Shown: positions 2,338-42,486 of the stretch, in pieces | How positions within the stretch are numbered: position 1 is the stretch's first letter | How the letters are laid out: each line of letters begins with the position of its first letter | From: Candidatus Poribacteria bacterium | Lineage (GTDB): Bacteria; Poribacteria; WGA-4E; WGA-3G | Reading direction: 5' to 3' | DNA: 64,000 bases | Assembly (NCBI GenBank): GCA_965242965.1 | Contig: OZ251518.1 | Location: 448,001-512,000, forward strand | Made by a program: the position numbers and the translations under genes | Notes under the pieces: generated by a model | Databases searched by the model: none | Told to the model about the DNA's origin: nothing | Seen by the model: the letters and a program-made list of their open reading frames with translations, nothing else

Positions 2338-2338
2338 A

Positions 2339-4548: not shown

Positions 4549-4555
4549 AGGAGAT

Positions 4556-4584
4556 AGTCTATCATAATTTTTGAAAAATTGCAA
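4556..4584 (-). promoter_or_regulatory. sigma70-type promoter, leaderless transcript likely
   Basis: Minus strand TTGCAA, 17 nt, TG-a-TAGACT, 7 nt before ATG 4548. Confidence 0.6.
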
Positions 4585-4605
4585 TACCTATAAGCGGTGC
4601 TTGAT

Positions 4606-5228
4606 TACCGTAGGGCGGGGGCCTGTCTCTCGCCGTGTCTGTATTGCGGGGTCGGAGCAGACTCCCGATTCCCGTAGGGCGGGGGCCTGTCCCCCGCCAT
4701 GCCCGGGATAATCGAGCACTCGCGAGGGACAGGCCCTCGCGCTACGGTGAGCGGGAAAACGCTACGGGGATCGAGAGATCGCGAGGGACAGGCCCTCGCG
4801 CTACGGTTATTCGGAGCGGGCTCCTCATTAACCGTAGGGCGGGGGCCTGTCCCCCGCCGTGCCCGTGTCGCGATGAAAGTTCGCGAGGGACAGGCCCTCG
4901 CGCTACGGTGAGCGGGAAAACGCTACGGGGATCGAGAGATCGCGAGGGACAGGCCCTCGCGCTACGGTTGTCGGAGCAGGCTCCTCTTATCGTAGGGCGG
5001 GGGCCTGTCCCCCGCCGTGCCTGTGTTGCGCGGAACGTTCGCGAGGGACAGGCCCTCGCGCTACGATAAAACGGGGCGTTTTGTGTTCCACCGAGCGTTC
5101 GCGAGGGACAGGCCCTCGCGCTACGGTTGTCGGAGCGGGCTCCTCATTAACCGTAGGGCGGGGGCCTGTCCCCCGCCGTGCCCGTGGTAGGCGAGAAATC
5201 GCGAGGGACAGGCCCTCGCCCTACGGTT
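4606..5228. repeat. BIME-like array of about 12 family-A REPs with a 161-bp higher-order duplication
   Basis: Repeated cgtagggcgggggcctgtcccccgcc and tcgcgagggacaggccctcgcgctacg. The block starting at 4721 recurs at 4882 including the spacer gagcgggaaaacgctacggggatcgagaga. Confidence 0.9.
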
Positions 5229-5294
5229 AAATCAAGTTTTTTCACAAAAATCTTAACAAAAAACGCGGAAATCTGCTTAAAATCACATTTTAAT

Positions 5295-5323: not shown

Positions 5324-5790
5324 ATATACTATATAGTAAAAATTGCCATGTTTAGTGCGAAAACGAACAAAGGATGCCAGACGTGAACTCTCAACCCGTT
5401 TTTCTCATTGCGGATACCCACATCCGCCCGAATAACGCGATTGCAACGACGTGCCAGCCACCCCGGCTGCGCGCCGTGTCTCCATTTGCGCGTCCAGTTG
5501 ATGACACCGCACTAAACATAAGTTCGATTTACCCCCCCCCGTCCTAAATGCCCGTTAACCTTTGACGTTATCGGCAGGAAGGCGGTTCAAGGGGATGTCT
5601 CTCATCTGAATCCCAACCCAAAATCCGCGTGCTTTGCACGCGCCTATGTTCTTTTGCCTCGTGGCACGCGCTCGCCTTCGCGAGTCCGCGCCTGCCACGG
5701 GGCTTTTCGCGTTGCATCGCCCGATGCAGCACCGATGTCTACCAGCGTTGTTCCGGGGAAAATTCACTCCCCACTTTGGGTATTAAGGGG

Positions 5791-5911: not shown

Positions 5912-8900
5912 ATGACAAGCAAATCGCTTTTTTCCTTAAGTTTACTGCTGCTTGCCACCCTAGCGGTTTCCCTCGGAACAGGGACGGAAGCGCAGGCACA
6001 AACTTACACAATTAACGCCGTTAGAATTTATGTGAACCCTGACATGGTAGACCCTAGTGAGGATGGCATGCCCGTTGAGTTTGCCGACGCGCGGACGAGT
6101 CCCATTGGCGGCAAACTGCCGAAGGTTGCCAATTCCTCTGTCGGGACGTTGAGCACCGAGGGAGGTGGTGTTGAAATCACCGCAACAAACGCGCACGATA
6201 GCACAACTCCCTATACCGCGAACGCGGGAGACATCATCGCCATTGCCTTTCAGGTAACCGCGACAGGGGGTTCGGTCCTTCACGGCTCAGTCATCTCTCT
6301 CGCTGGTTGGGAGACGGGCGGCCCACGGGGGATGGTTGGCGTATATACAAAACCCCTGTACCCGAGCCGCTTGATAGAAGGAAGTGGCGGTTCGGCTGTG
6401 ACTGTCCCCTCGCCCTACAACTTTACCGTGGTATACGCCTACCCGGTGAGGTCTGACGACATGGACGCGGATGGCGATTGGCTGTTCCATCGTTCTGGTA
6501 ACAGGCCTTTCCACCGCTGGACTGGAGCGTTAAACGCGACTTATTCCGCCCCTATCACTGTCCGCTATCCCAGGATAGATGGTAGCGTTTCGACGATTCC
6601 GACGGTGACGCGCCTGACGATAAACAGGCCGCCCGCCGGGCAGTCAGGACGCTCCCGCTATTACAAAGTCCGCCAAGAGTGTTTGGATCATCAACGAAAA
6701 TACGCGGCTGTCTACACGAATGCTTGTGAATTAGTGCAGGACCACGGCTGGGCTCTTCCCAACGATCCGACTCATCCGGTAACGCTGGCCAATAGCCTGC
6801 CGACTGCCTTTTTCAAAGCCGGCGACACGATAGAATTTCAGTTGCAGTTTAGCGAAGAGGTGATTGTGACAGGGGCTCCAATCCTAGAGCTCATGCTTGA
6901 TGGGGGCACCGGACGGATGCACTACGTACCCGCCGGGAGTGGAGCAACGACACTTACCTTCCGATACACAGTGCAACAAGGCGATACGGCTTTCGGTGGC
7001 ATCGCGGCTTGGAATGCCTGGGGTAACATCAGGGATGGCAATAGCATCGAAGATATATCAGGGCATAAAGTTAATAGCGTTACCCGGGACGTTGAATCGG
7101 CGATTCGGGCATTTTTTGCCGGTCAAGAGGGCATCAGGGCGGAGGAGGCTCATCCCTGGTTAGACCCGCCAGGTGCCCACTGGAAAAAGTATGCCACCGG
7201 TATCGCTGAATACCTTGTGGATACTGTCCCGCCGACGGTGTGGATTCCCGGCTTGATAAAGAATGGGGAGACACACACCGACGATAGACGGAATACGTTT
7301 GTGAGTGTGGAACCGACTTATCTTGCTGTCCCTACATTTACGGAGGCAGATCTCCGAGCGGTTGTTACGGAAAGTGAATCACAGACAGATGCCTTTGATG
7401 TGGAATTCCGCTTTTTTAATTGGGACGGTGGGGCACTAGCCGACGAAGTGGGGATTAGTTTTACCGGCGATGATGTGGAGATCACGGGGGCGAATGTGGA
7501 GCGAGCCGATTGGGCAGTTGAAACTACCTATATCGGATTAGACCATCGTGCTACCAATCAGTGGCCGCCTACCGACAGAGCGGGGCAGCCAGCGGGTTCA
7601 GCCCATAAGCCAGGGCATGCCAAGAACTCCGCGTCGTTCCTCGTCTACAAGGCGACAATTCGTCCGGCCCTGGGTTTTCAGGGCAACGTGTCCATCAGTT
7701 TGCCGGCGGGTGCTACTCAAGATATCGCCGGCAACGACAGTTATGCCTCAAATACGTTGACAGTGCCCGTGAACAATCCATTGCGCGTGGTGGAAAAGCC
7801 GGAGATTGTCGTGCCTCCCGCCGGTGTCCATACTGCCGGGGATAAGATTGAAGTGGAAGTGACGTATGACAAGGAGAATCTCCGCTATGAAGGCGAGAAC
7901 CCGCCGTATGTGACGCTTTATCTCGGCGAAGAAGTGCCGGCAAATGCAAGGCATGCAACATGGCAACGCGCCGAAGACGCAAATTCCACGAAAGTGACGT
8001 TTGCGTATACGGTGGCAGCAACGGACACGGTGGCAGAGGCAGTGCGTGTCCCTTCCGTCAAGATAATGGTTCCTGAAGAGACGAGTTTGCTTTCTGGTTC
8101 CCTCGGTGCGTCGGCTGAGCGGCAGTCTGGAACAGAGGAGCGTGCGGCGGCATCTGGTGCTGCGCCAACAACGGTGCCGACGGTAGAGCCGTCGCCGTTG
8201 GAAGATACGTCTGGACGTGAGATTGCCCCGGTAGTTTCGGAGACACCGGTGGTGCCGGTGATTTACCTTCCGGAAACGTCAGATCCGAAGGCGGTTGCAT
8301 CGGCTGTGCCTCGCAAGCCCATCGTTTTCAACGAACTCGGCAACGGCAGCGGCGATGCTGATGACTGGCTGGAACTTCGCAATGTCACCGGTGATGCAGT
8401 CTCGTTAAAAGACTGGGAGCTCAGCATCGTGCAGGATGGCAAGAAGGAAGATACCTCCCTGATTGCTTTTGTAGAAGATGTGAGTGTGCCGGCGAATGGG
8501 CTGTTGTTGCTCGTGAATACGTCACCGGACAAAACGTCTCTCGCCGGTGGGGATAACGTGGAGACTGCCGAGGTCGAGACAAAAGGTTCTTCGCACCAGT
8601 ATCTTGTCAAATCGGAGTTGTCCCTACCAGATGATGGCAAGTTCCTCTTGATTCTCCGGAACGCGAAGGATAAACGCGGCTTGAACGAGGCGTTCGTGGA
8701 TGTCGCCGGTGGCGGCGGCAGTGACACGGATGCGTTTGTCCGCGAGCAGACAGGCGATTATGATACGCATGTCTGGCCCTTGCAAGTGTTGCAGGCACCG
8801 GGTGGTGACACTGAAGATGCCCTCGGCTCAGGCAAAGTCTGGCAGCGCGCCAAGGCGGACATTGTGGGATACCACAAAGATGCCTGGGCAGAATCGGCGT

Positions 8901-9994
8901 TCACCGGTATCGGTTACGATAGGAAGGTGACAGAGTCTCCTGCCACTTCCGGCACGCCGGGATATCCGAATGGTGCTGTCAAAACGGAAGCTGCCACGCC
9001 GAAGGGAAGTGTCACGCTCAGCGAAATCATGTTTGATTCTGCAGGTGGCACATTGCCGCAGTGGATCGAACTCTACAACAATTCCAAAACGGATGCAATC
9101 AATCTCAACCGCTGGAGGTTGGAGATTCAGAACGTCGACTCCGAGGATTTAGTCGGCCGCCCGATTGTCACGTTGACGTTAGGAGAAAAAGTGATTCAAC
9201 CGAATCAAACGTTGCTCATCGTCGCAGGTCCGGCGCGTGCGTCATCGGATTCGTATCTGCCGGCGGATAGAGTTTACGATCTGCTTGCACTGCATGAGAA
9301 GAATCTGCGTATCAAGCGTGCGCGGGATACGTTCTTGAGTACCGAGGGGTTCTACTTGCAACTCTCCGATAGAAACGGGAATCTGGTAGACGAAGTCGGG
9401 AATAGGGACAGCGACAGGCGTTCGGATGATGCGCCGGCATGGGCATTACCGCTGAGTTTTGAGGAAGGTTCGCGGAGTTCTGTCATTCGGCGTTACGATA
9501 AAGGGGTTGCGCTGCCGGGACGAAAGCGTGCGAGTTGGGTGTTGGCATCGCGCATCAAGCCGTTTGATGAGTCTCTCCATTACGGCCATGCTGAGGACAT
9601 CGGCACACCGGGGCATCGCGAAGGTGGTGCATTGCCGGTGGAGTTATCCAGTTTCTCGATGACGCGTAATGAAACAGGTGCTGTTGTCTTGACATGGACA
9701 ACCGAATCTGAGGTAGATAACGCCGGTTTCAATCTGCGTCGCAGTGAAAAGCGCGCGAGCGGTTTCACGCTCTTGAATCCTGCCTTAATCGCCGGTGCCG
9801 GCACGACGGGTGAACGTCAAACTTACACGTTTACCGACACATCGGCGAAGCCGGGAATTGAGTATTACTATCAGATCGAGGAAGTTGCGTTTGATGGGAA
9901 GCCGGAGACGTTAGTGACGCGGTTGTTGCCGGGTCCTGTTTCTGCATCTAATCGGATGCTGACGACATTCGGCGAAGTCAAGCAGCAGGAGTAA
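5912..9994 (+). CDS. Large secreted/surface protein with Ig-like modules, two lamin-tail domains and a C-terminal sorting-like tail
   Basis: 1360 aa; signal peptide ending AQA; SD GGAGG. Two related AGD(T/K)IE...(L/V)TFxYTV modules, LTD-like motifs IVFNEL..DWLELRN and LSEIMFD..QWIELYN, LPVELSSF...WTTESEVDNAGFNL domain, terminal RMLTTFGEVKQQE. Confidence 0.8.
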   Translation: MTSKSLFSLSLLLLATLAVSLGTGTEAQAQTYTINAVRIYVNPDMVDPSEDGMPVEFADARTSPIGGKLPKVANSSVGTLSTEGGGVEITATNAHDSTTPYTANAGDIIAIAFQVTATGGSVLHGSVISLAGWETGGPRGMVGVYTKPLYPSRLIEGSGGSAVTVPSPYNFTVVYAYPVRSDDMDADGDWLFHRSGNRPFHRWTGALNATYSAPITVRYPRIDGSVSTIPTVTRLTINRPPAGQSGRSRYYKVRQECLDHQRKYAAVYTNACELVQDHGWALPNDPTHPVTLANSLPTAFFKAGDTIEFQLQFSEEVIVTGAPILELMLDGGTGRMHYVPAGSGATTLTFRYTVQQGDTAFGGIAAWNAWGNIRDGNSIEDISGHKVNSVTRDVESAIRAFFAGQEGIRAEEAHPWLDPPGAHWKKYATGIAEYLVDTVPPTVWIPGLIKNGETHTDDRRNTFVSVEPTYLAVPTFTEADLRAVVTESESQTDAFDVEFRFFNWDGGALADEVGISFTGDDVEITGANVERADWAVETTYIGLDHRATNQWPPTDRAGQPAGSAHKPGHAKNSASFLVYKATIRPALGFQGNVSISLPAGATQDIAGNDSYASNTLTVPVNNPLRVVEKPEIVVPPAGVHTAGDKIEVEVTYDKENLRYEGENPPYVTLYLGEEVPANARHATWQRAEDANSTKVTFAYTVAATDTVAEAVRVPSVKIMVPEETSLLSGSLGASAERQSGTEERAAASGAAPTTVPTVEPSPLEDTSGREIAPVVSETPVVPVIYLPETSDPKAVASAVPRKPIVFNELGNGSGDADDWLELRNVTGDAVSLKDWELSIVQDGKKEDTSLIAFVEDVSVPANGLLLLVNTSPDKTSLAGGDNVETAEVETKGSSHQYLVKSELSLPDDGKFLLILRNAKDKRGLNEAFVDVAGGGGSDTDAFVREQTGDYDTHVWPLQVLQAPGGDTEDALGSGKVWQRAKADIVGYHKDAWAESAFTGIGYDRKVTESPATSGTPGYPNGAVKTEAATPKGSVTLSEIMFDSAGGTLPQWIELYNNSKTDAINLNRWRLEIQNVDSEDLVGRPIVTLTLGEKVIQPNQTLLIVAGPARASSDSYLPADRVYDLLALHEKNLRIKRARDTFLSTEGFYLQLSDRNGNLVDEVGNRDSDRRSDDAPAWALPLSFEEGSRSSVIRRYDKGVALPGRKRASWVLASRIKPFDESLHYGHAEDIGTPGHREGGALPVELSSFSMTRNETGAVVLTWTTESEVDNAGFNLRRSEKRASGFTLLNPALIAGAGTTGERQTYTFTDTSAKPGIEYYYQIEEVAFDGKPETLVTRLLPGPVSASNRMLTTFGEVKQQE

Positions 9995-10004
9995 ACGCAA
10001 TATC

Positions 10005-10430
10005 ACCGTAGCGCGGGGGCCTGTCCCCCGCGATGCCTCTAACTGTCTGAATCAGGATTTTCGGGATTTTAGGATTTTCAGGATTATCTCCCTCGCGGCG
10101 GTGAAACCTCTGTTGAAAAGGACAGCACAGAGCCTACGGACCTAAAACTCCATTTTCCAGCAGTGCCGCATCGGTTGGAGACCAGGGTCCCTAATCTTGC
10201 TAATCGTGATAATCTTGTAAATCCTGCTTCAGACGATTGGCACGGCGAGGGACAGGCCCTCGCCCTACGGTAAAACGGGCCGTTCTGGATACCGTAGCGC
10301 GGGGGCCTGTCCCCCGCGATCGCCTGATAGACCGCAGCATGGCGAGGGACAGGCCCTCGCCCTACGATAAAACAAACCATACTGAATCCATCGCGCGGGG
10401 GAAAACCCATCCCCCGCGCTTTTTTTGTGC
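10005..10430. repeat. REP-A copies plus an inverted pair of 9-bp-periodic AATCCTG/CAGGATT repeats
   Basis: REP-A at about 10006, 10243, 10292 and 10340. caggattttcgggattttaggattttcaggatt (10054-10085) faces aatcttgctaatcgtgataatcttgtaaatcctg (10193-10226). A hairpin plus T-run lies at about 10395-10427. Confidence 0.8.
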
Positions 10431-18122: not shown

Positions 18123-18340
18123 TAGCATCGAGACCAGGAGGTCTCTCCTACCTCCGTAGGGCGAGGGCCTGTCCCTCGCCGAGGGCTCTCTTACCACCGT
18201 AGGGCGAGGGCCTGTCCCTCGCCATGCTTCGGTCTACCGGAAACTCGCGGGGGAAACCCTCTCGGATGCGCGTGTGGCATCCGAGGGCCCCCGCGCTACG
18301 GTACTTTGACATTTTCTTGCCAGGTCTCTCCTACGGGGAG
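18103..18340. repeat. REP cluster (families A and B) after ribF, including a REP with a nested hairpin
   Basis: catcgagaccaggaggtctctcctac, two cgtagggcgagggcctgtccctcgcc copies, and gcgggggaaaccctctcggatgc...gcatccgagggcccccgcgctac. Confidence 0.85.
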
Positions 18341-22741: not shown

Positions 22742-23770
22742 ATGATGAAATTTCAACAATGGACAGCGATGGCACTCTTCTCTATCTCACTGCTTCTCGT
22801 CGTCTCTTGTGAGAAGGAGCCGGGAAATTGGACAGCAGTCCACCGAGAGGGAGCGTCTATTTACGGCGTGTGGCGAAGTCCGACAAAAGCCGCGGCCACT
22901 TTGGCAGTTGCGGAGGTGAACCGTAATCTCCTTGACAAGGGTGCGCAGGGGTCGGATTTGCCTATCTTTACGACGTTGGCCCCGATAGAACTCTTACCTG
23001 TTCAAGTCGTCGCCGGGCGCAACGTTTCTCAGGCGGAATGGGTGCAGGCGCGTGTGCCATCGACTTATCAAGGCAAAACCCTCTATCGCGATAGGCCCGC
23101 GGCACCGGACCTTTACCACGCTTACGGTTTTCAGCAGCAGGCGGAGGTGGAATACCAGAGTCGGAAATTCGGTTCAGAGCCGCTCATCTTGCTTGAAATT
23201 TTTGATATGGGCACCGCGGAGAATGCGTTCGGAATTTACAGTTTCAACACATATCCTCGGGCCGAGATGGTCTGGGTGGGAAGCAAGGCACTGCTTTCCG
23301 GTGGCTATCTCCGTTTTGCTAAAGGGAAGTATTTCGTTGAGATAGAGGGTTATGAATTCGCTACCGGCATTCGCGAAGGCATCGTCGCGCTGGCGAAGGC
23401 GATTTCTGCGCAGATTCAAGAGCCGCCGACAAAGGTCCCCCTGTTTGCGATGCTGCCGCATGCCAACCGAATCGGCGGAAGTGACAAATTATTCCGCTCA
23501 CATTGGACGCTGAGCCAAATCTACAGCGGGTTACCGCTAAGCCTCCCGCAGTTGACAGGATTTCCCCTCTGTGTCTCCGCAAGTTATCGCGATAACGATG
23601 CAGATGATTGGGTGAATGCGCGGGTTGTGTTTATCCTCCGGTTCCCTGATGCCGCCACTGCCGAGGCGGCTTGGACGCGCTATCGTGAAGAGGTGACGAA
23701 AGCATCCCCTGCCTTTGAAATGGGGGCAAATGGGGAGATTTTGGTTGATGAACAACTACCTTCGGAGTAA
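22742..23770 (+). CDS. Lipoprotein, DUF6599-like
   Basis: Lipobox VVSC; 'YGFQQ..EVEY', 'LEIFDMGTAENAFGIYS', 'FAKGKYFVEI'. The ORF-track extension to 22652 is REP-B derived (HRDQEVSPTG). Confidence 0.6.
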   Translation: MMKFQQWTAMALFSISLLLVVSCEKEPGNWTAVHREGASIYGVWRSPTKAAATLAVAEVNRNLLDKGAQGSDLPIFTTLAPIELLPVQVVAGRNVSQAEWVQARVPSTYQGKTLYRDRPAAPDLYHAYGFQQQAEVEYQSRKFGSEPLILLEIFDMGTAENAFGIYSFNTYPRAEMVWVGSKALLSGGYLRFAKGKYFVEIEGYEFATGIREGIVALAKAISAQIQEPPTKVPLFAMLPHANRIGGSDKLFRSHWTLSQIYSGLPLSLPQLTGFPLCVSASYRDNDADDWVNARVVFILRFPDAATAEAAWTRYREEVTKASPAFEMGANGEILVDEQLPSE

Positions 23771-23798
23771 AAACTGATGCACTACCTTTCTGAAATGA

Positions 23799-23806
23799 CC
23801 CCCCCC
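23799..23806 (+). repeat. Poly-C (C8) simple sequence repeat in the 5' end of methyltransferase copy 1
   Basis: GGAG-preceded ATG at 23777 reads MHYLSEMTPP-TGA. C7 or C10 would read MHYLSEMTPP(P)DLARMLIRGDNL in frame with the main ORF. Confidence 0.85.
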
Positions 23807-23819
23807 TGATCTGGCCCGG

Positions 23820-25208
23820 ATGCTTATTCGTGGGGATAACTTAATTGAGATGCGGAAGATACCGGATAACGTCGTCGCTCTCATCGCGACGGATCCGCCG
23901 TTCAATTCTAAACGCGACTATTTCGTGCCGTATCGCGATGAACACGGAAAAGAGCCTGACACCCTCGTCAAAGCGTTCACCGATACATGGAAATGGGGCG
24001 ACGCGGCCGAGGCAACGTGCGATGAACTTATTCGCGACATCGGCGGCGCGATAGGCGAGACGATTGAGGGGTTACGACTCTTTTTGAAGCAAACGCCGAT
24101 GATGGCGTATTTGGTGATGATGGGAGTTCGGCTAGTGGAGATGCACCGGATTCTGAAACCGACGGGTTCAATTTATCTCCACTGCGATGCGACTGCGTCG
24201 CACTATCTGAAAATTTTGATGGATGCCGTTTTCGGCGCGAAAAATTTCATGAACGAACTCGTTTGGTGTTATTCCTGGCCCCGGAATTCCAAGCGATATT
24301 ACGCGCGAACGCACGATAGTATTCTTTTTTACACCCTCGGCGACAAATGGACATTCAACGCCGATGCAATACGTCAACCTTACGCGGCGGCATCGGAAGG
24401 CAGAGATGCCTATGCTGCCAATGCATCGCAGTTTGGGGATGCTGTTGTGCTGGATAAGCGCGGGAAACTCCCGCAAGACTGGATAATTCTGCCGCCTGTC
24501 CGTCCGAATGCGAATGAACGTGCAGGTTATCCGACGCAGAAGCCGATAGCCCTCTACAAACGCATCATCCAAGCCTCTAGCAACGAAGGCGATTTGGTGC
24601 TAGATCCGTTCTGTGGTTGCGGCACGACACTCCTTGCGGCGGAGGCACTCAATCGGCGATGGCTCGGCATTGATTTGACATACCTCGCCACGGGAGCCGT
24701 CACACTGCAGATGGAGAAATTCTTCCCGCAGGTGAAGGACAGCATCGTTATCACCGGCACGCCAGAAAACGTAGACACTGCGCTGCAACTTGCCCGCGAA
24801 GACCCGGGTGGGTTTGAGGAGTGGTGTGTGACGCATGTGCTAAAGTTTACCTCAAACGCCAAAAAGGTAGGCGATGGCGGCATTGATGGCACATATCGGT
24901 TTCCTATCGGCAAGGTAAAGGGACGCACGGCTTATGGAAAGATGGTTGCACAGGTGAAAGGTGGGAAGTATAGCCTCGGGCATATCCGTGATTTTCGGAC
25001 AGCGATGACGAATGCACAAGCGGATTTGGGCATCTTTGTCGTGACGCGGCCCCCGAGCGCCGGAATGCGCGCGGAGGCGAGTCGTGCAGGGATGTGGAAA
25101 CATCCGCTGTGGGATATGACATGTCCACGCGTGCAACTTTATGAGATTCAAGATTATTTTGATGGCACCCTGCCGAAGATACCTGTGGGAGAACGGCGGG
25201 TGCTGTGA
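23820..25208 (+). CDS. Beta-class N6A/N4C DNA methyltransferase fused to an Mrr-like PD-(D/E)XK domain, copy 1
   Basis: GDNL, DPPF (motif IV), GSIYLHCD, YPTQKP, DPFCGCGTT (motif I); C-terminal FEEW...DGGIDG...QVKGG...IRDF...GIFV. The true start is probably 23777, across the poly-C. Confidence 0.9.
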   Translation: MLIRGDNLIEMRKIPDNVVALIATDPPFNSKRDYFVPYRDEHGKEPDTLVKAFTDTWKWGDAAEATCDELIRDIGGAIGETIEGLRLFLKQTPMMAYLVMMGVRLVEMHRILKPTGSIYLHCDATASHYLKILMDAVFGAKNFMNELVWCYSWPRNSKRYYARTHDSILFYTLGDKWTFNADAIRQPYAAASEGRDAYAANASQFGDAVVLDKRGKLPQDWIILPPVRPNANERAGYPTQKPIALYKRIIQASSNEGDLVLDPFCGCGTTLLAAEALNRRWLGIDLTYLATGAVTLQMEKFFPQVKDSIVITGTPENVDTALQLAREDPGGFEEWCVTHVLKFTSNAKKVGDGGIDGTYRFPIGKVKGRTAYGKMVAQVKGGKYSLGHIRDFRTAMTNAQADLGIFVVTRPPSAGMRAEASRAGMWKHPLWDMTCPRVQLYEIQDYFDGTLPKIPVGERRVL

Positions 25209-25282
25209 TACCGCTTCTTTCTCGTAGGACGACGGCCGTTACGCCGATGCCTTTGAAATGGCAGCAAATGGGGAAATTTTTG

Positions 25283-25311
25283 TTGACAAACACCTGACTT
25301 TAAAGTAGAAT
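25283..25311 (+). promoter_or_regulatory. sigma70-type promoter for methyltransferase copy 2
   Basis: TTGACA-17-TAGAAT; the -35 lies within a duplicated remnant of the DUF6599-like gene's 3' end. Confidence 0.65.
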
Positions 25312-25396
25312 TACGCTGGCAGTTCTGCGAGTCTATCCATGCTAAAATTACCGAAACAATCGGAGTGAAAGTTGATGCACTACGTCTTTGAAATGA

Positions 25397-25405
25397 CCCC
25401 CCCCC
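25397..25405 (+). repeat. Poly-C (C9) simple sequence repeat in the 5' end of methyltransferase copy 2
   Basis: GGAG-preceded ATG at 25375 reads MHYVFEMTPPLIWPGCLFVGIT-TAA, out of frame. C10 or C7 restores the frame. Confidence 0.85.
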
Positions 25406-25418
25406 TGATCTGGCCCGG

Positions 25419-26861
25419 ATGCTTATTCGTGGGGATAACTTAATTGAGATGCGGAAGATACCGGATAACGTCGTCGCTCTCATCGCGACGGATCCGCCGT
25501 TCAATTCCAAACGCGACTATTTCGTGCCGTATCGCGATGAACACGGAAAAGAGCCTGACACCCTCGTCAAGGCGTTCACCGATACATGGAAATGGGGCGA
25601 CGCGGCCGAGGCGGCATGCGATGAACTCATCCTTGAAGTTGGTGGACAGATAGGTGAGACGATTGAGGGGTTACGACTCTTTTTGAAGCAGACTCCGATG
25701 ATGGCGTATTTGGTGATGATGGGGGTGCGGCTGGTGGAGATGCACCGGATTCTGAAGCCGACAGGTTCGCTGTATCTCCACTGTGATTCGGCCGCCAGTC
25801 ACTACCTAAAACTCCTCTTGGATGCTGTGTTTGGACATGCGAACTACCGTAACGAAATCATCTGGCGGAAGTATGCGGGACGCAAGAACAACGCCAAGCA
25901 TAAATTCGCCACGCAAACTGACACAATCCTGTTTTATGCCAAAAGCAAAAATGCCGTTTTCAATCCGCTGTTTGAGCCAATTTCAGACAAGGAGATTGAG
26001 AAAAAATATCGTTACACCGACGATGATGGAAGGCGGTACCGTTTGAGTTGGGGCCGGCATTATCAGATGACAGGTGAACAGCGGCGTATCTATCTGGACA
26101 AACAACCCGGTGCTGCTATCGGCTCTTTGTGGGCGGAAGATGGATTGCAGCTGAATACCTCTACAAGAGAACGCGCGGGGTATCCGACGCAGAAGCCGAT
26201 AGCCCTCTACAAGCGCATCATCCAAGCCTCCAGCAACGAAGGCGATCTGGTGTTAGATCCGTTCTGTGGTTGCGGCACGACACTTCTCGCTGCGGAGGCA
26301 CTCAATCGGCGATGGCTTGGCATCGATTTGACGTATCTTGCCACGGGAGCCGTCACACTGCAGATGGAGAAATTCTTTCCGCAGGTGAAAGACAGTATTG
26401 TTATCACCGGCACGCCGGAAAACGTAGAAACCGCGCTGCACCTTGCACGCGAAGACCCGGGTGGATTTGAGGAGTGGTGTGTCACGCATGTGCTGAAGTT
26501 TACCTCAAACGCCAAAAAGGTGGGCGATGGCGGCATTGATGGCACCTATCGGTTTCCCATCGGCAAGGTGAAGGGACGCACGGCTTATGGAAAGATGGTT
26601 GCACAAGTGAAAGGTGGGAAATATAGCCTGGGGCATATCCGTGATTTCCGGACGGCGATGACGAATGCGCAGGCGGATTTAGGTATCTTTGTCGTGGCGC
26701 GGCCGCCGAGTGATGGAATGCGCGCCGAGGCGAGTCGTGCAGGGATGTGGAAACATCCACTGTGGGACATGACATGTCCACGCGTGCAGCTTTATGAGAT
26801 TCAGGATTATTTTGATGGCACCATGCCGAAGATACCTGTTGGGGAGCGGCGGGTGCTGTGA
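25419..26861 (+). CDS. Beta-class DNA methyltransferase fused to an Mrr-like domain, copy 2 (different target-recognition region)
   Basis: Near-identical to copy 1 outside the segment between 'DAVFG' and 'ERAGYPTQKP'. Confidence 0.9.
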   Translation: MLIRGDNLIEMRKIPDNVVALIATDPPFNSKRDYFVPYRDEHGKEPDTLVKAFTDTWKWGDAAEAACDELILEVGGQIGETIEGLRLFLKQTPMMAYLVMMGVRLVEMHRILKPTGSLYLHCDSAASHYLKLLLDAVFGHANYRNEIIWRKYAGRKNNAKHKFATQTDTILFYAKSKNAVFNPLFEPISDKEIEKKYRYTDDDGRRYRLSWGRHYQMTGEQRRIYLDKQPGAAIGSLWAEDGLQLNTSTRERAGYPTQKPIALYKRIIQASSNEGDLVLDPFCGCGTTLLAAEALNRRWLGIDLTYLATGAVTLQMEKFFPQVKDSIVITGTPENVETALHLAREDPGGFEEWCVTHVLKFTSNAKKVGDGGIDGTYRFPIGKVKGRTAYGKMVAQVKGGKYSLGHIRDFRTAMTNAQADLGIFVVARPPSDGMRAEASRAGMWKHPLWDMTCPRVQLYEIQDYFDGTMPKIPVGERRVL

Positions 26862-26882: not shown

Positions 26883-27000
26883 CATCGCGGGGGACAGGCC
26901 CCCGCGCTACGGTGAAAATGAGATTGACATCGCGGGGGACAGGCCCCCGCGCTACGGTGAAAATGAGATTGACATCGCGGGGGACAGGCCCCCGCGCTAC
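26883..27000. repeat. Three direct 45-bp tandem units, each with a REP-A
   Basis: catcgcgggggacaggcccccgcgctac at 26883, 26928 and 26973, joined by ggtgaaaatgagattga. Confidence 0.92.
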
Positions 27001-27802: not shown

Positions 27803-28786
27803 ATGGATACCAAATGCACACAAAACTTGTCTGCTGTTACGGCGGCGTTGGATGATGTGTATCCATCTGCTGCGTCTCTAGTGGAAAAGGTGATGGCGGA
27901 TGCGCAGGCGTTGCAAGCGGCCGGCGAGACAGCGGCGGCGATTGAGAAGTGGCGTTCGCTTGCAATTCTGGTAGAAGGAGTGGCGGATGCGTTAGCGGCG
28001 CATGCATGGTTTCAGGTAGGTTCACTGCTTTCCGATGCTGGCAAACATGCCGAGGCGGTGGTGGCTTACGATAACGTTATTCGGCTGCGTTCCGATTGCG
28101 GCGAGGCGTATCTCCAGCGTGGCAAGGCAAGAAATGGGTTAGAGCAGTATGAGGCTGCCTTGGTGGACTTGGAGAGGGCCCTGTGTTTGCAGCCCGATGT
28201 TGCGGCGATTTATTCGGCGCGCGGGGTTGCCAAATCCGGTCTCGGGGAGCACGATGCTGCCATGGCAGAGCACGCGAAGGCGTTGCAGTTAACGCCGCGG
28301 TGTGCGTCGGTGTATGCGAACCGCGGCGTGTCAAACATGTATCGCGAGGAAAACGAGGCGGCGGTTGCGGATTTCGACGAGGCGATTCGTTTGGATGCGA
28401 CGCTGTCCGAGGTTTATCATCTCCGCGGGTATGTGAAGTTCTTCCTGAGTCAAGATGAGTCAGCTGTTGCCGATTATGACGAGGCGATTCGTCTCAATCC
28501 CAGGAATGCAGCGAGTTACACGAATCGCGGCTTGATAAAAAAATCGTTGGGACAGCGCAAGGCAGCGTTCGCAGACTACGAGGCGGCAATCCGTGTCGCA
28601 CCAAACTACGCGCAGCCGTATACCTACCGGGCCGAGGAAAACCTCTACTGGGGACATGAGGCAGCGGCGCGCGCGGATTTGGAAATTGCGATGGAACTGG
28701 CACGTGCAGCGGGTGATGAAGCCCATCAGGTTTATGTCACCTATCGGCTTGAGGAACTTGACGAAGCGGAGGAGGCCAACGACTGA
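27803..28786 (+). CDS. Tetratricopeptide-repeat protein, copy 1
   Basis: Repeated 34-aa TPR pattern (AY..RG......G....A.ADYDEAIRLNP); SD GGAGG. Confidence 0.9.
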   Translation: MDTKCTQNLSAVTAALDDVYPSAASLVEKVMADAQALQAAGETAAAIEKWRSLAILVEGVADALAAHAWFQVGSLLSDAGKHAEAVVAYDNVIRLRSDCGEAYLQRGKARNGLEQYEAALVDLERALCLQPDVAAIYSARGVAKSGLGEHDAAMAEHAKALQLTPRCASVYANRGVSNMYREENEAAVADFDEAIRLDATLSEVYHLRGYVKFFLSQDESAVADYDEAIRLNPRNAASYTNRGLIKKSLGQRKAAFADYEAAIRVAPNYAQPYTYRAEENLYWGHEAAARADLEIAMELARAAGDEAHQVYVTYRLEELDEAEEAND

Positions 28787-29286
28787 TGCCTGATTTTTCC
28801 AAATTCAAAAAAGTTGAACCTCGTGACATCTGGTTTCGGGAGGCACAAGACTTTACACCCTGGCTCGCCGAGAATTTGTCATGCCTCTCTGAGTCCTTGA
28901 ACCTAGAGTTGGCCTTTGAGGCGCGTGAGCAACGGGTTGGCGACTTCCGGGCAGACCTGGTGTGTCGGAACGTGATGGATAACTCCCGCGTGGTGATTGA
29001 AAACCAGTTGACGCGGTCAGACCATTCGCACCTCGGCCAAGTCCTGACATACGCAGCCGGGCTCCAAGCCATTACCGTGATTTGGGTAGCTGTAAAATTC
29101 CGGCGTGAGCATCGGGCAACGCTGGATTGGCATAATGAGATAACGGCGGAACGTTTTCGGTTTTTCGGGGTGGAACTCTATACATGGGAAAATCAGACTT
29201 CACGCTATGTAGAGTTTGCTATTGTCTCCAAACCAGAAGGTTGGATGCAGTCGGAAGGCTCTTGCCGGTACCTCATTCCGGAATAA
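28786..29286 (+). CDS. PD-(D/E)XK nuclease-like protein (NucS-like domain seen N-terminal to DUF4268), copy 1
   Basis: RDIW..EAQDFTPWLAENL, RADL, VVIENQL..SDH.HLGQVLTYAAG, IWVA..FR.EHR..LDW.N; TGATG overlap with the TPR gene. Confidence 0.8.
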   Translation: MPDFSKFKKVEPRDIWFREAQDFTPWLAENLSCLSESLNLELAFEAREQRVGDFRADLVCRNVMDNSRVVIENQLTRSDHSHLGQVLTYAAGLQAITVIWVAVKFRREHRATLDWHNEITAERFRFFGVELYTWENQTSRYVEFAIVSKPEGWMQSEGSCRYLIPE

Positions 29287-29361: not shown

Positions 29362-30360
29362 ATGGCAACGAAATCGATAGCACTTCACACGGAACAGCAT
29401 ACGCGAACCGTCGCGGCGGCATTGGGGGATGTGTCTCCATCATCCACATCATTGGTGGAGAAAGCGATGTCGGATGCGCAGGCGTTGCAAGCAGCCGGCG
29501 AGACAGCAGCGGCGATTGAGAAGTGGCGTTCGCTTGCGATTCTGGTGGAAGAGGTGGCGGATGCGTTAGCGGCGCATGCATGGTTTCAGGCCGGTTCACT
29601 ACTTTTGGAATCCGGTGATGCCGCTGCTGCAATTGCCGCTTACGACAACGCGATTCGGTTGCAGCCGGCGTGCGCAGCAGCCTATCTCCACCGCGGTCAG
29701 GCGAAAAATGCATTGGCGCGATATGATTCGGCATTAGCCGATTTAGACAAGGCACTCTGTTTGGATTCAGGGATTGCCGCGGCTTATTCCGCTCGGGGCG
29801 TTGCGCGTTCTGGGCTCGGACAGCACGAAGCCGCCCTTGCCGAGCACGAGGTTGCCTTCCAGTTAACGCCGCAGTGCGCGGAGGCCTATACGAATCGCGG
29901 TTTGTCGAAAATGCTGCAAGGCGAAGATGAGGCGGCTCTCGCTGACTTTGACGAAGCGATTCGTCTCAATCCGGAGATGTCAAAAGTCTATCATTATCGA
30001 GGTGGGTTGAAGTTCTTCCTGAGTCAACGCAAATCCGCAATCTCTGATTATGATGAGGCGATTCGGCTCAATCCCAGGAATGCAGCGAGTTATACGAATC
30101 GCGGACTCATAAAAAAATCGTTGGGACAGCGCAAGGCAGCGTTAGCAGACTACGAGGCGGCAATCCGTGTCGCACCAAACTACGCGCAGTCGTATACCTA
30201 CCGGGCCGAGGAAAACCTCTACTGGGGACATGAGGCGGCGGCGCGCGCGGATTTGGAAATTGCGATGAAACTGGCCCGTGCAGCAGGTGATGAAGCCCAT
30301 CAGGTTTATGTCGCCTATCGGCTTGAGGAACTTGACGAAACGGCGGAGGCCAACGACTGA
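29362..30360 (+). CDS. Tetratricopeptide-repeat protein, copy 2
   Basis: Paralogue of 27803-28786; near-identical N-terminal block and C-terminal third, diverged middle TPRs. Confidence 0.9.
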   Translation: MATKSIALHTEQHTRTVAAALGDVSPSSTSLVEKAMSDAQALQAAGETAAAIEKWRSLAILVEEVADALAAHAWFQAGSLLLESGDAAAAIAAYDNAIRLQPACAAAYLHRGQAKNALARYDSALADLDKALCLDSGIAAAYSARGVARSGLGQHEAALAEHEVAFQLTPQCAEAYTNRGLSKMLQGEDEAALADFDEAIRLNPEMSKVYHYRGGLKFFLSQRKSAISDYDEAIRLNPRNAASYTNRGLIKKSLGQRKAALADYEAAIRVAPNYAQSYTYRAEENLYWGHEAAARADLEIAMKLARAAGDEAHQVYVAYRLEELDETAEAND

Positions 30361-30860
30361 TGCTTGATTTTGACTCACTCAAAAAAGTTGAACCTCGTGA
30401 CATCTGGTTTCGGGAGGCACAAGACTTTACCCCCTGGCTCGCCGAAAATTTGTCATGCCTCTCCGAGTCCTTGAACCTAGAGTTGGCCTTTGAGGCGCGT
30501 GAGCAACGGGTCGGCGACTTCCGGGCAGACCTGGTGTGTAGGAACGTGGCGGATAACTCCCGCGTGGTGATTGAAAACCAGTTGACGAAGTCCGACCATG
30601 GGCACCTCGGCCAAGTCCTGACATATGCAGCCGGGATACCGGCTCTTACCGTCATTTGGGTGGCTACAGAATTCCGGCGTGAACATCGGGCAACGCTGGA
30701 TTGGCAAAACGAAATAACGGAGAAACGGTTCAGTTTTTTCGGCGTGGAACTTCAGACTTGGAGAGACTGGGCATTGCGTTATCGGGTAGAATTTTCTACT
30801 ATCGCCAAACCCCTGGGCTGGACGCAGTCGGAAGATCGGCTACTCTATCAAATTCGGTGA
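30360..30860 (+). CDS. PD-(D/E)XK nuclease-like protein, copy 2
   Basis: Paralogue of 28786-29286, same length (166 aa), diverged C-terminus; TGATG coupling. Confidence 0.8.
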   Translation: MLDFDSLKKVEPRDIWFREAQDFTPWLAENLSCLSESLNLELAFEAREQRVGDFRADLVCRNVADNSRVVIENQLTKSDHGHLGQVLTYAAGIPALTVIWVATEFRREHRATLDWQNEITEKRFSFFGVELQTWRDWALRYRVEFSTIAKPLGWTQSEDRLLYQIR

Positions 30861-39334: not shown

Positions 39335-39708
39335 TAGGCAATTCAGTTGTCGTTCGGGCTCGCCGGCAGCCCAGGCCAAACGAGTCACGCTCGGACGAGT
39401 TGATTTTCCTACAGAGACGATACAAATCAGTTTAATTTCATATTACGCAGAGTGAACTCGGAAGGCACATTAAGGACCTAAAGGCCCTTAGGGTTCTTCG
39501 CGAACCGATATGCTATAGACATGAAAGGTCTAAAGGACCTAATGCTATAAACATGCCTCTCCGAACGGAACTGAACAGCGTTTTTGCTAAATAAAAACCT
39601 TGATTTTATTTTTGGAATTTGTCATTATTCTATCAGAAACTTTATCCAAAACGTTGCGGGACGCGTTTCAATACGTTCCCGCGCAACATTACGAGGAGAT
39701 CTACGCTC

Positions 39709-42486
39709 ATGAAAAAGACGCTCATTGCCGTTTTGGTACTGCTCTTAACGGCCACGCTATTTATCACGAACACTACCGCACAAGAAAAAATCACCGGCCC
39801 GTGGCTCTGGATTATTGCGCCAACCGAGGCAAACGAAGGTGGTGCGAATTCCATTGATATTGATTCACTTGCGATTGCCAGCGGAGGCACTGTCACCGAA
39901 TCAGACATCGCCGCAAACGGTGCAAACGCAGGCGGCCGGATAGGGAATTTTGTTTGGACGCTCGGTGAGATTTCGGAGACAGGCGGAGACAATATCAACG
40001 AGTGCCTCAACCGCATCGGCATGATAAACGGCGACGTAAACGACCATTCCTCATACGCGCTATTTCAGTTTAAGGTAGACACCGCCTTGCACGGCGTGAC
40101 GATGCTCGTCGGCAGCGATGACGCTATCAAAGTGTGGCTTAACGGCAAAGTCGTGCATACCAATGCCGTTAACCGCGGGGCAGGCGACTTCCAAGACGAA
40201 TTCCAAGTCAATCTCGTCGCAGGCGATAATCTGTTGCTGGTGAAAGTCAGTGAGCGTGGCGGTGGCTGGAGCATGTTTGTTGGTATAGATGCCTTTCTAG
40301 GAGAAATTGGAGAAATTGTCTCCATACCGGATCTCAACTTAGCATCAGCGATTCGCGAAGCTGCCCAACTACCTTCCGGTACGCCAATCACAACACGGAC
40401 AATGCAAGGGTTACAGGGAATTCAAATCCGCAATCGCGGGATAAGAGACCTCACAGGTCTACAACTGGCGATGAATCTGCAACAATTGGTCTTGGAAGAT
40501 GAGTCATTGATAGCAGATTTTTCACCCCTTGAAAAATTGCCACAACTGACATCGCTATCTCTCAACGGCAGCGCTGTCTGGAATGTAGCTCCCCTAGCAA
40601 ATCTTACGCAATTGAAGGCACTGAGTCTCCGCGAAACCGCTATTGATTTGTCGTTTCTCGCCTCCCTTACACAATTAGATACACTGGATCTCAGCAGCAC
40701 GGGTGTTTCGGATGTGTCGCCGCTCGCCTCCCTCACACAGTTGGAAACGCTGGATCTCAGCAGCACGGGTGTTTCGGATGTGTCGCCGCTCGCGAGTCTT
40801 ACGCAATTGCAGACGTTGAATCTCGGCAGCACGGGTGTTTCGGATGTGTCGCCGCTCGCCTCCCTCACACAGTTGGAAACGCTGGATCTCAGCAGCACGG
40901 GTGTTTCGGATGTGTCGCCGCTCGCGAGTCTTACGCAATTGCAGACGCTGGATCTCCGTAGCACGGGTGTTTCGGATGTGTCGCCGCTCGCGAGTCTTAC
41001 GCAATTGCAGACGCTGAATCTCCGTAGCACGGGTGTTTCAGATGTGGTTCCTCTTGCAAATCTCACACAATTGGAAAAACTAGAAATCAACAACACCGGT
41101 GTGGTAGATGTGGTTCCTCTTGCAAATCTCACACAATTGAAAGCGTTGAATCTTGCCGGCACAGATCTTTCAGACATAGTTCCTCTTGCAAATCTCACAC
41201 AATTGGAATGGTTAGATCTCGGCAGCACAGATGTCTGGGATGTGACACCGTTCACAAGCCTTACACAGTTGGAGTGGCTGAATCTCACCAACACAGATGT
41301 TTCGGATGTGACATCTCTTACAAATCTCACGCAATTGAAGGTACTGAATCTCAATAGCACCGATGTAGCAGATATGTCACTCTGGGTCATAGGCAATCTG
41401 CGTCTGAAGAACTGCCCGCTGAGTTACACCACTATCCACACGTATATTCCCGCGATGCAGGCGAGGGGGATAGGGGTGGAATTTGACAACGTCGCGCATC
41501 CCGCCCTATTGAAAATTTCTGGCGATGGGCAGGAAGGCGAACTCGGGGTGCCGTTAGAAAAACCGTTTTTTGTGAAAGCGATGGCTGAACACGGTAAACC
41601 AATGGTAGGGAGAACAGTTCAATTTGATATCCTTGAGGGCCGCGGGACGCTCAGTTCCAACACCGTGAAGACAGATGCAAGCGGAAATGCACGGGTAACC
41701 CTCACGCTCGGTAGAACTACTGGGGTGAACAAAGTCAAGGCGAGTGTCGTGGGTATCCGTTCTTGGGTATTATTCACAGCTATTGCTATAGGGACGGCCT
41801 CCGAATTTGCGCTAGATGTGAACGGTGATGGCGTGGTGAATATTCTGGATTTGACAGCGGTTTCAGGTCAGTTCGGAGAGACTGGCGAAAATCGCGCCGA
41901 TGTGAACGGTGATGGTGCCGTTAACATTCAGGATTTAGTGTTGGTTGCGGGTGCTTTTGGGGAGGGCGCGGCTGCGCCGCCGGCGCGGGCGGTTTCGCAG
42001 GCGCGTCTGACTGCCTCGGATGTAGAGCGGTGGTTGGGTGAGGCGCGTGCCATAGGAGGGACATCCCTGTCCCGATATGAAATGCATCGAGACCAGGAGG
42101 TCTCTCCTACCGGGAAGAGTCAAGACCAGGAGGCTATCCTACAACTGCGTGGAATTGTGGCACTGGAGCAGCTCCTTGCTAATCTGATTCCGAAGGAGAC
42201 AGCACTGCTGCCAAACTACCCCAATCCGTTTAATCCAGAGACGTGGATACCGTATCAATTGGCAAACCCTGCGGAGGTGACGGTGACGATTTATGCGGCG
42301 AACGGTGCGGTGGTGCGGACTTTGGACTTTGGGCATCGGCGTGCGAGGAGTTATGCGAGTCGAAGTCGTGCTGCGTATTGGGATGGCCGCAATGCACAGG
42401 GAGAGTCTGTTGCAAGCGGGGTCTATTTCTATACGCTCACGGCGGGAGATTTCGCAGCGACGCGGAAGATGCTAATTTTGAAGTAG
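39709..42486 (+). CDS. Secreted internalin-like LRR protein with Ig-like, dockerin-like and FlgD/T9SS-A-like C-terminal domains
   Basis: SD GAGGAG + MKK signal peptide; GSDDAIKVWLNG beta domain; 22-aa LRRs; LLKISGDGQEG Ig-like domain; two DVNGDG.VNI.DL; NYPNPFNPETWIPYQL...YWDGRN..GE.VASGVYFY. Confidence 0.88.
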   Translation: MKKTLIAVLVLLLTATLFITNTTAQEKITGPWLWIIAPTEANEGGANSIDIDSLAIASGGTVTESDIAANGANAGGRIGNFVWTLGEISETGGDNINECLNRIGMINGDVNDHSSYALFQFKVDTALHGVTMLVGSDDAIKVWLNGKVVHTNAVNRGAGDFQDEFQVNLVAGDNLLLVKVSERGGGWSMFVGIDAFLGEIGEIVSIPDLNLASAIREAAQLPSGTPITTRTMQGLQGIQIRNRGIRDLTGLQLAMNLQQLVLEDESLIADFSPLEKLPQLTSLSLNGSAVWNVAPLANLTQLKALSLRETAIDLSFLASLTQLDTLDLSSTGVSDVSPLASLTQLETLDLSSTGVSDVSPLASLTQLQTLNLGSTGVSDVSPLASLTQLETLDLSSTGVSDVSPLASLTQLQTLDLRSTGVSDVSPLASLTQLQTLNLRSTGVSDVVPLANLTQLEKLEINNTGVVDVVPLANLTQLKALNLAGTDLSDIVPLANLTQLEWLDLGSTDVWDVTPFTSLTQLEWLNLTNTDVSDVTSLTNLTQLKVLNLNSTDVADMSLWVIGNLRLKNCPLSYTTIHTYIPAMQARGIGVEFDNVAHPALLKISGDGQEGELGVPLEKPFFVKAMAEHGKPMVGRTVQFDILEGRGTLSSNTVKTDASGNARVTLTLGRTTGVNKVKASVVGIRSWVLFTAIAIGTASEFALDVNGDGVVNILDLTAVSGQFGETGENRADVNGDGAVNIQDLVLVAGAFGEGAAAPPARAVSQARLTASDVERWLGEARAIGGTSLSRYEMHRDQEVSPTGKSQDQEAILQLRGIVALEQLLANLIPKETALLPNYPNPFNPETWIPYQLANPAEVTVTIYAANGAVVRTLDFGHRRARSYASRSRAAYWDGRNAQGESVASGVYFYTLTAGDFAATRKMLILK
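40655..41365 (+). repeat. 66-bp tandem repeats encoding 22-aa LRR units
   Basis: Near-identical units ctggatctcagcagcacgggtgtttcggatgtgtcgccgctcgc..., encoding LDLSSTGVSDVSPLASLTQL(E/Q)T. Confidence 0.92.

Follow-up and report, generated by a model that had tools for sequence, protein, structure and literature searches.

The stretch of DNA analysed here, 64,000 nt of a Candidatus Poribacteria bacterium (GCA_965242965.1, contig OZ251518.1, positions 448,001 to 512,000 of the forward strand; hereafter the window), carries two tandem paralogous genes for predicted DNA methyltransferases of the beta class, each continued at its C-terminus by an Mrr-like domain. In both genes an uninterrupted run of cytosines, C8 in copy 1 and C9 in copy 2, lies between an ATG opening the residues MHY, preceded by a Shine-Dalgarno (SD)-like GGAG, and the long main frame of the enzyme. 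A prediction made from the letters of the window had read the pair as two phase-switchable enzymes differing in their target recognition domain (TRD). We followed it up with homologue, profile and fold searches, with an analysis of codon usage and substitution, and with a comparison with contigs of related organisms. In a scan of genome contigs, the best related loci of the window were all found in metagenome-assembled genomes of Poribacteria. One of them, a contig of another Poribacteria species syntenic with the window locus, is referred to below as L015, and its two methyltransferase genes as copies A and B.

The tandem gene pair and its enzymes

The pair lies between a DUF6599 gene and an Amidohydro_2 gene, with its copies spaced by 1599 bp as counted between the main ATGs and by 1598 bp between the MHY ATGs (Table 1). 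The first ATG of the long main frame gives MLIRGDNL... in both copies. The Leu codon of LIRGDNL follows the MHY ATG at a distance of 46 nt in copy 1 and of 47 nt in copy 2, so that a tract of C7 or C10 would fuse the MHY start to the main frame in either gene; the C8 of copy 1 is one C over an in-frame length, and the C9 of copy 2 is one short or two over. The paralogues, the two tracts with their coordinates and this frame arithmetic had all been put forward in the original prediction and were confirmed.

The two proteins are 79% identical overall, with 95% identity in the core and 22% in the TRD. Their divergence is restricted to the two TRD intervals of Table 1, between the motifs DAVFG and ERAGYPTQKP, in a stretch matching the one where the TRD of beta-class methyltransferases sits. 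Over the C-terminal 230 codons the copies differ by 0.010 nonsynonymous (dN) and 0.379 synonymous (dS) substitutions per site. The predicted picture of near-identical cores with many synonymous changes, and of divergence confined to the specificity region, thus holds. As the TRDs are different, the two enzymes presumably methylate different motifs.

The spacer between the methyltransferase genes (25209-25374) includes sequence copied from the 3' end of the DUF6599 gene upstream, now degraded, which indicates that the duplicated unit took in the tail of that gene. It also bears a 60-nt insertion with a match to a sigma-70-like promoter; copy 1 begins 6 nt past the DUF6599 stop and has no such promoter.

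Table 1. Features of the gene pair in the window and, in the last row, of a second tract-bearing methyltransferase gene on another contig (L003, positions of that locus)
Feature	Position	Strand	Basis or remark
GGAG, Shine-Dalgarno-like, 9 nt 5' of the copy 1 MHY start	23764..23767	+	Sequence; same motif before copy 2 and both L015 copies
Copy 1 leader frame MHYLSEMTPP-stop, ancestral N-terminus cut by frame shift	23777..23809	+	ATG at 23777, stop TGA at 23807-23809; homologous to the intact P0002/P0011 leaders
Copy 1 poly-C tract, C8	23799..23806	+	Sequence, frame arithmetic; C7 or C10 in frame
Copy 1 main open reading frame, 462 aa from internal ATG (frame open from 23799); predicted beta-class N6/N4 DNA methyltransferase with Mrr-like domain	23820..25208	+	
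TRD type 1, 93 aa, AKNFMNELVWCYSW...	24237..24515	+	93% amino acid identity with the TRD of L015 copy B
Copy 1 Mrr-like PD-(D/E)xK-type domain (GDGGIDG ... AQVK)	24798..25142	+	Pfam, motif columns, structure model, fold search
Near-consensus sigma-70-like promoter ahead of copy 2 (TTGACA, 17 nt, TAGAAT)	25283..25311	+	11/12 matches; consensus match only
GGAG motif 5' of the copy 2 MHY start	25362..25365	+	Sequence
Copy 2 leader frame, MHYVFEMTPPLIWPGCLFVGIT then stop, overlapping the internal ATG	25375..25443	+	ATG at 25375, stop at 25441-25443
Copy 2 poly-C tract, C9	25397..25405	+	Sequence, frame arithmetic; C7 or C10 in frame
Copy 2 main open reading frame, 480 aa from internal ATG (frame open from 25392)	25419..26861	+	
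TRD type 2, 111 aa, HANYRNEIIWRKYAG...	25836..26168	+	96% amino acid identity with the TRD of L015 copy A
Copy 2 Mrr-like domain	26451..26795	+	Pfam
L003 G9 site (tract 5273-5281)	5263-5291	-	G8 or G11 would be in frame

The catalytic part of both proteins matches Pfam N6_N4_Mtase (PF01555; E about 1e-45, 156.9 and 153.5 bits in copies 1 and 2, cut-off 26.7 bits), with motif IV (DPPF), the TRD and motif I (FxGxG) following one another in this order. Homologues were searched among 8000 scored candidates, of which 7999 had E <= 0.001 and 120 were listed; an N-terminus alignment of 67 sequences was formed by 65 of these 120 together with the two window copies. In this alignment DPPF and FCGCGT are invariant or nearly so. 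Searches against NCBIfam, PADLOC and PDB sequences placed the catalytic part nearest to the Type II beta-class enzymes, such as M.RsrI, and further from Type III Mod proteins (PADLOC MTase_II 7e-55 versus MTase_III 2e-44; PDB M.RsrI 2e-20 versus EcoP15I Mod 4e-8). PADLOC returned generic MTase_II, MTase_III and orphan-MTase models only and no named defence system for the pair. The res gene expected beside a Type III methyltransferase is absent from both the window locus and L015, and no separate cognate restriction gene was found in either neighbourhood.

The C-terminal domain scores above the cut-offs of two Pfam models, Mrr_cat (PF04471; 24.9 and 23.5 bits in copies 1 and 2, cut-off 21) and NA-iREase1 (31.8 and 30.5 bits, cut-off 27), and it should be added that the latter, a model of an 'inactive' nuclease, slightly outscores the former. 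Across an alignment of 81 sequences of the domain, D53, G55 and G58, which are the first Asp and the two Gly of GDGGIDG, show no variation, nor does K81, the Lys of QVK; conservation at I56, D57, Q79 and V80 is 90% or higher. The AlphaFold model of the domain has a mean predicted local distance difference test (pLDDT) score of 83, and a fold search with it returned the catalytic domains of MspJI and AspBHI as top PDB matches, with TM-scores of 0.53-0.56 and modest E-values (1.2e-3 to 7.5e-3, none at or below 0.001). With the same domain, a PDB sequence search gave only unrelated proteins at chance level (best E 0.0056) and no significant stretch. The catalytic site of Mrr is given as PD-QxK in a review (PMC12707154). 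Taken together with this precedent, the conserved D...QVK columns and the fold match make it plausible that the domain is an active nuclease, as judged from the alignment and the model.

Nuclease and methyltransferase on a single chain, as in Type IIG enzymes, are thus recognised here on the domain level only, as N6_N4_Mtase plus Mrr_cat. Typical Type IIG enzymes have an N-terminal PD-ExK nuclease, a gamma-class methyltransferase and a C-terminal TRD, whereas the window pair has its beta-class methyltransferase at the N-terminus and its nuclease-fold domain at the C-terminus, with an internal TRD. By sequence matching, this combination of a beta-class methyltransferase with a C-terminal Mrr-like domain represents a very large uncharacterised family, with at least 7999 matches at E <= 0.001.

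Leaders, poly-C tracts and the orthologous locus

Most of the 120 homologues listed open with MH(E/Q/K)NRTLIRGDNL. Database protein clusters related to the window enzymes are cited here as P0001-P0009, P0011 and P0012 (P0001 has 54 members); P0001-P0007 and P0011 were compared as proteins. The leader is intact and in frame in P0002, which is 88% identical (MHSLFEVPPPLLNRALVRGDNL), and in P0011 (MHYLHELPPLLNRALVRGDNL), and P0009 and P0012 have a longer N-terminus, MQYLFENTQLPNRTLIRGDNL. The window sequence MHYLSEMTPP(P)DLARMLIRGDNL is the same leader as in these four clusters. Since the leader is common to relatives, the SD-led MHY ATG is, on this comparison, the ancestral start of both genes, and the C run would encode Pro-Pro(-Pro).

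The region around the internal ATG points the same way. The Arg directly before it is invariant in 67 of the 67 aligned sequences, and the Thr that is replaced by Met in the window copies is at least 90% conserved in the same alignment; a start at 23820 or 25419 would therefore yield a protein without the invariant Arg. The full-length AlphaFold model (pLDDT 76) has only moderate confidence at the N-terminal residues and is undecisive on the folding of such a protein. A GGAG precedes the MHY ATG in all four copies, two in the window and two in L015. No SD-like motif is present before the internal ATGs at 23820 and 25419, which agrees with the initial observation that the downstream ATG lacks an evident SD; across the window, SD-like motifs precede 22 of 39 crude gene starts, versus 20% of random positions. 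Six further close clusters, P0001 and P0003-P0007, are called from the internal Met. Gene callers begin these genes at that residue, and the candidate switch is thereby hidden in annotation.

In L015 the order of genes is that of the window neighbourhood: pnp, a small lipoprotein gene, DUF6599, two methyltransferase genes, amidohydrolase, a tetratricopeptide repeat (TPR) gene and gcvT. The five pairs of flanking genes compared are all collinear and of matching length, at dS 0.28-0.55. Copy A has the same leader with a pure C9 tract, and C8 or C11 would be in frame with MHY; another ATG, at 4438 (MSLPPPDW...), is in frame with the enzyme at C9, so that two of the three tract phases of this copy have an in-frame ATG. 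The cluster P0008, with 24 member sequences, is called from this same alternative start. Copy B has the same leader with a pure C10 tract, C8 or C11 being again the in-frame lengths, and its main frame lacks any start codon ahead of LIRGDNL. All four copies are consequently out of frame with the MHY start. The sequence directly 3' of the tract has diverged between L015 and the window, while the tract itself was kept.

Pure C runs thus stand at the same codons in all four copies, with assembled lengths of 8, 9, 9 and 10 among two paralogues in each of two species, and the orthologue comparison proposed with the original prediction recovered both the leader and the tract. Homopolymers of about 8 or more in a reading frame are regarded as hypermutable, and C8 and C9 are of this size; by arithmetic, changes of length bring the start in and out of frame, at C7/C10 in the window and C8/C11 in L015. 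The window has three C/G runs of at least 8, a number not unusual as such: first-order Markov simulations, 200 in all, gave 1.5 on average and never more than 5. No C6 or C7 run is present beside its C8 and two C9. CCC makes up 17% of the Pro codons in window open reading frames, and CCC-CCC encodes none of the 38 other Pro-Pro pairs in the 41 frames considered. The homopolymer is therefore not a by-product of proline coding, and codon usage argues for its having been selected. Position, conservation at the orthologous locus and codon make-up of the tracts are, taken together, beyond chance.

The enzymes themselves are conserved. Their four main frames are open over 461-479 codons, and dN/dS is about 0.03-0.1 in every part of the gene and in every comparison, at dS 0.4-1.0. 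Low dN/dS and open frames argue that the genes are under strong purifying selection and not decaying. In copy B of L015 an intact N-terminus is impossible without a change of tract length or a slip, and its conservation is otherwise hard to explain.

Within each genome the copies are more alike in the conserved 5' and 3' parts than any pair across the species, with identity around the tract of up to 99% between window copies 1 and 2 and up to 94% between L015 copies A and B. The two TRD types stand in opposite order in the window and in L015, relative to the same flanking genes: the TRD of window copy 2 corresponds to that of copy A (dN 0.015, dS 0.48) and that of window copy 1 to that of copy B (dN 0.045, dS 0.45), and the dS of these orthologous TRDs equals the divergence of the species. 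As read from these distances, the same two TRD alleles have been inherited in both species, inside cores homogenised by gene conversion (concerted evolution). Recombination between the homologous flanks had been anticipated as a route of TRD exchange, and both the swapped TRD order and the homogenised cores support it. The 5' cores of both window copies are nearer to copy A and the 3' cores nearer to copy B, so that exchange of whole genes and exchange of TRDs only are not separable, and the 18-nt leaders are too short to settle the positional orthology of the cores. Two more TRD types occur on the same scaffold, in P0009 and P0012.

Another tract-bearing methyltransferase gene was found on a different contig of the same species as L015. 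At this locus, L003, an N6_N4 methyltransferase gene is interrupted by a G9 run 54 codons after the start (Table 1). The protein has a Type III-Mod-like N-terminus and is unrelated to the pair, and neither res nor a cognate restriction gene was found near it. Among the G/C runs of at least 8 in the window and 18 Poribacteria loci (of 80 loci retrieved), five of seven lie within the first 60 codons of methyltransferase genes, a proportion to be read with caution, since four of these five go back to a single origin and the presence of a methyltransferase was what the loci had been selected for. A G8 run at the locus L002 is located in repeat-rich non-coding DNA, and a distant Chloroflexaceae homologue (L034) has a C9 at 1761-1769, near its 3' end and in frame as PPP.

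Several other repeats were observed in the window. The third long run, C9 at 5532-5540, is non-coding; it comes after a 57-aa open reading frame (5374-5547) and about 370 nt upstream of a gene (5912-9994) whose 1360-aa product looks secreted and has a Lamin Tail Domain. A palindromic element resembling repetitive extragenic palindromes, whose core GGGACAGGCCCCCGCGCTAC belongs to a GC-rich hairpin, was counted 33 times when up to 2 mismatches were allowed, with 0 expected. Its copies are grouped in clusters between genes, at 1973-5224, 10008-10365, 15566, 18156-18218 and 26891-27000, one of which is a 45-bp unit repeated 2.6 times (26883-27000) directly 3' of copy 2. Downstream of the pair, a second tandem duplication (27803-29286 and 29362-30860) comprises a TPR gene and a 166-aa gene without Pfam match; L015 has a single TPR gene and, after it, a single gene similar to the latter. 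About ten tandem 66-bp units at 40657-41337, inside a 955-aa open reading frame (39619-42486), give a 22-residue repeat.

Candidate switches and other explanations

We consider it fairly probable that selected, hypermutable poly-C tracts here form a pair of contingency (phase-variation) switches, acting on two methyltransferase-nuclease fusions of different specificity in a recombining tandem array. Each gene would truly start at its SD-led MHY ATG, with codons 8-10 forming uninterrupted poly-C for Pro-Pro(-Pro). Selection would keep the tract as a homopolymer, and its length would change by slipped-strand mispairing of the DNA, so that the SD-led start would at times be in frame with the enzyme and at times not, as in an ON/OFF switch. 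From the assembled genotype (C8, C9) no more would be made than a protein shortened at its N-terminus, begun at the internal ATG that lacks an SD. Recombination would take place between the conserved cores of the pair, and the TRD cassettes would have changed places between the species. A defence or regulatory role of the pair may be supposed. Of the phase-switch interpretation first proposed for the pair, the parts that are upheld are the exchange of TRDs and that of switch candidates, the latter supported by the ancestral SD-led frame, the conserved tracts and the selection acting on the genes.

A number of observations count against such switches. Variation in tract length is seen only between paralogues and species, in assembled sequence. 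Long C/G runs are no more numerous in the window than expected from a Markov model. The five tracts inspected as DNA, namely the two of the window, the two of L015 and that of L003, are all out of frame with the ancestral start, while fast neutral switching predicts that about one third would be in frame; the chance of finding all five out is about 0.13. The calling of P0001 and P0003-P0007 from the internal Met was taken as an indirect sign of the same state. This bias suggests selection for OFF, a sequencing bias or some other route of expression. Furthermore, the in-frame internal ATG of the window copies and the 4438 ATG of copy A may render the 'OFF' state leaky. A variant of the switch reading takes the out-of-frame state as the normal resting one, expression of a potentially self-toxic fusion then depending on slippage, through either rare DNA-level ON variants or an RNA-level dose limiter; we hold this variant to be unlikely.

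Apart from slippage of DNA, the break between start and main frame might reflect the assemblies themselves, with real tracts of C7 or C10 and ordinary constitutive methyltransferases. All five inspected tracts being off by one or two bases is how several platforms err, and in three of the five the excess is exactly one base. Against this, the break recurs in two independent assemblies, and the six clusters called from the internal Met come from other contigs. Moreover, the long open reading frames of the window are intact (up to 1360 aa), the flanking genes are collinear with those of L015 in all five pairs, and an error would leave unexplained why a pure C run stands at codons 8-10 of four copies against the preference of codon usage. 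Homopolymer error is accordingly an improbable cause. Slightly greater weight, though still low, is given to expression independent of the tract: translation would begin at the internal ATG (MLIRGDNL), the MHY leader would be vestigial or a regulatory upstream open reading frame, and both enzymes would be made at any tract length. The leader stop of copy 1, 10 nt before this ATG, would permit termination-reinitiation; the ATG occurs in both window copies as well as in P0001 and P0003-P0007, distant relatives having Thr or Ala at this position; most family members have only five residues before LIRGDNL; and purifying selection is strong despite the out-of-frame tracts. The product, however, would lack the Arg that is invariant in the alignment and would be initiated without an SD-like motif, L015 copy B has no such start and is yet equally conserved, and maintenance of the homopolymer would go unexplained.

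A low and constant amount of full-length product could also arise at the RNA level, by slippage of RNA polymerase or by ribosomal frameshifting, which in copy 1 might be a +1 shift at CCC-UGA and in copy 2 a -1 shift on C-CCC-CCC. CCC-UGA is a shift-prone context, as the original prediction had stressed, and in copy 1 the main frame is precisely the one reached by shifting +1 at CCC-TGA (23804-23809); likewise, recoding would reconcile the out-of-frame state of all inspected tracts with open reading frames under selection. The +1 shift at CCC-UGA fits copy 1 and no other copy. The four copies need different corrections, +1 or -1, which no single programmed shift provides and which argues against programmed ribosomal frameshifting of the prfB type. 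Neither a stimulatory RNA structure (z = -0.21) nor an Rfam match nor an SD-like stimulator just upstream of the tract was found. As to polymerase slippage, the bacterial enzyme is reported to have been tested on A/T runs only (PMC6260861), and the literature on C runs was not searched. We regard recoding as a poor candidate, somewhat behind assembly error. Pseudogenes in early decay, with the frameshifts as first lesions, are the least credible explanation and one that we hardly entertain: both copies are out of frame with the conserved start, as decay would have it, but the frames remain open over their 461-479 codons with dN/dS far below unity even at dS 0.4-1.0, and the DPPF, FCGCGT and D...QVK motifs are intact.

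Relation to known switches and significance

Poly-G/C tracts of similar length drive phase variation of methyltransferase and restriction-modification genes (PMC5909438, PMC4889913). The system described in PMC5909438 resembles the window pair in its beta-class (PF01555) methyltransferases, whose 5' and 3' parts are conserved on either side of a variable central TRD, in a simple repeat, often homopolymeric G/C, in the 5' coding region, and in having several independently switching genes per genome with TRD alleles shuffled by recombination. The window pair differs from it in having no adjacent res, in being nearer to Type II and in carrying the additional C-terminal Mrr-like domain; its candidate switch belongs to a sponge symbiont that is uncultured and has a large genome. 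Cj0031, a phase-variable Type IIG enzyme of Campylobacter jejuni, likewise unites methyltransferase and nuclease modules in a single polypeptide, is switched by an in-frame poly-G/C tract of 9 and changes its motif with TRD variation between strains (PMC4889913). It has 1243 aa and a tract in the middle of the gene (PMC4889913), versus about 470 aa and a tract at codons 8-10 in the window. The window enzymes also have another layout than Cj0031, with the beta-class methyltransferase first and the Mrr-like domain, a predicted nuclease, last.

M.RsrI, M.MboIIA and CcrM, Type II beta-class enzymes, are the best sequence matches among solved structures and share the order DPPF, TRD, FxGxG; they have neither the C-terminal nuclease-fold domain nor the leader tract, both of which are present in the window enzymes. 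The C-terminal domain in turn is akin to Mrr, MspJI and AspBHI by its Mrr_cat match, its D...QVK columns, its best fold matches and the PD-QxK site (PMC12707154). Those enzymes are modification-dependent, and their nuclease is joined to a reader domain, either a winged helix or a SET and RING-associated (SRA) domain, whereas in the window it is joined to a methyltransferase. Type I systems with duplicated hsdS similarly keep duplicated specificity modules in homologous flanks and exchange them by recombination; they do so through inverted repeats and rapid switching (PMC7394358), in contrast to the direct repeats of the window and an evolutionary swap of order between two species only. The pair differs from known switches in the architecture of the enzyme, the tandem arrangement with two TRDs and the host. 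Our literature search found no account of phase variation in sponge symbionts or Poribacteria, and for the pairing of N6_N4_Mtase with Mrr_cat it gave two papers, one of them on Shedu.

The locus draws attention to a very large and uncharacterised architecture, that of a beta-class methyltransferase with a C-terminal Mrr-like domain. The pair is also a natural test case, since individual long reads of sponge metagenomes can connect the methylation motif with the length of the tract and the type of TRD. Methyltransferases switched by homopolymers are a textbook device of host-adapted pathogens with small genomes, while Poribacteria are dominant uncultured symbionts of sponges and, according to sponge metagenome studies, rich in defence genes. 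Candidate poly-C switches in such symbionts therefore imply that the same logic of bet-hedging by methyltransferase switching may extend to mutualists exposed to heavy phage pressure. Should the out-of-frame state be the resting one, which we hold to be unlikely, rare DNA-level ON variants would give the symbiont population a two-switch, four-state methylome and a means of bet-hedging in defence. Either these or RNA-level slippage as a dose limiter would carry the biology of contingency loci into a mutualistic phylum that is uncultured and has large genomes, and into a very large family of enzymes as yet uncharacterised.

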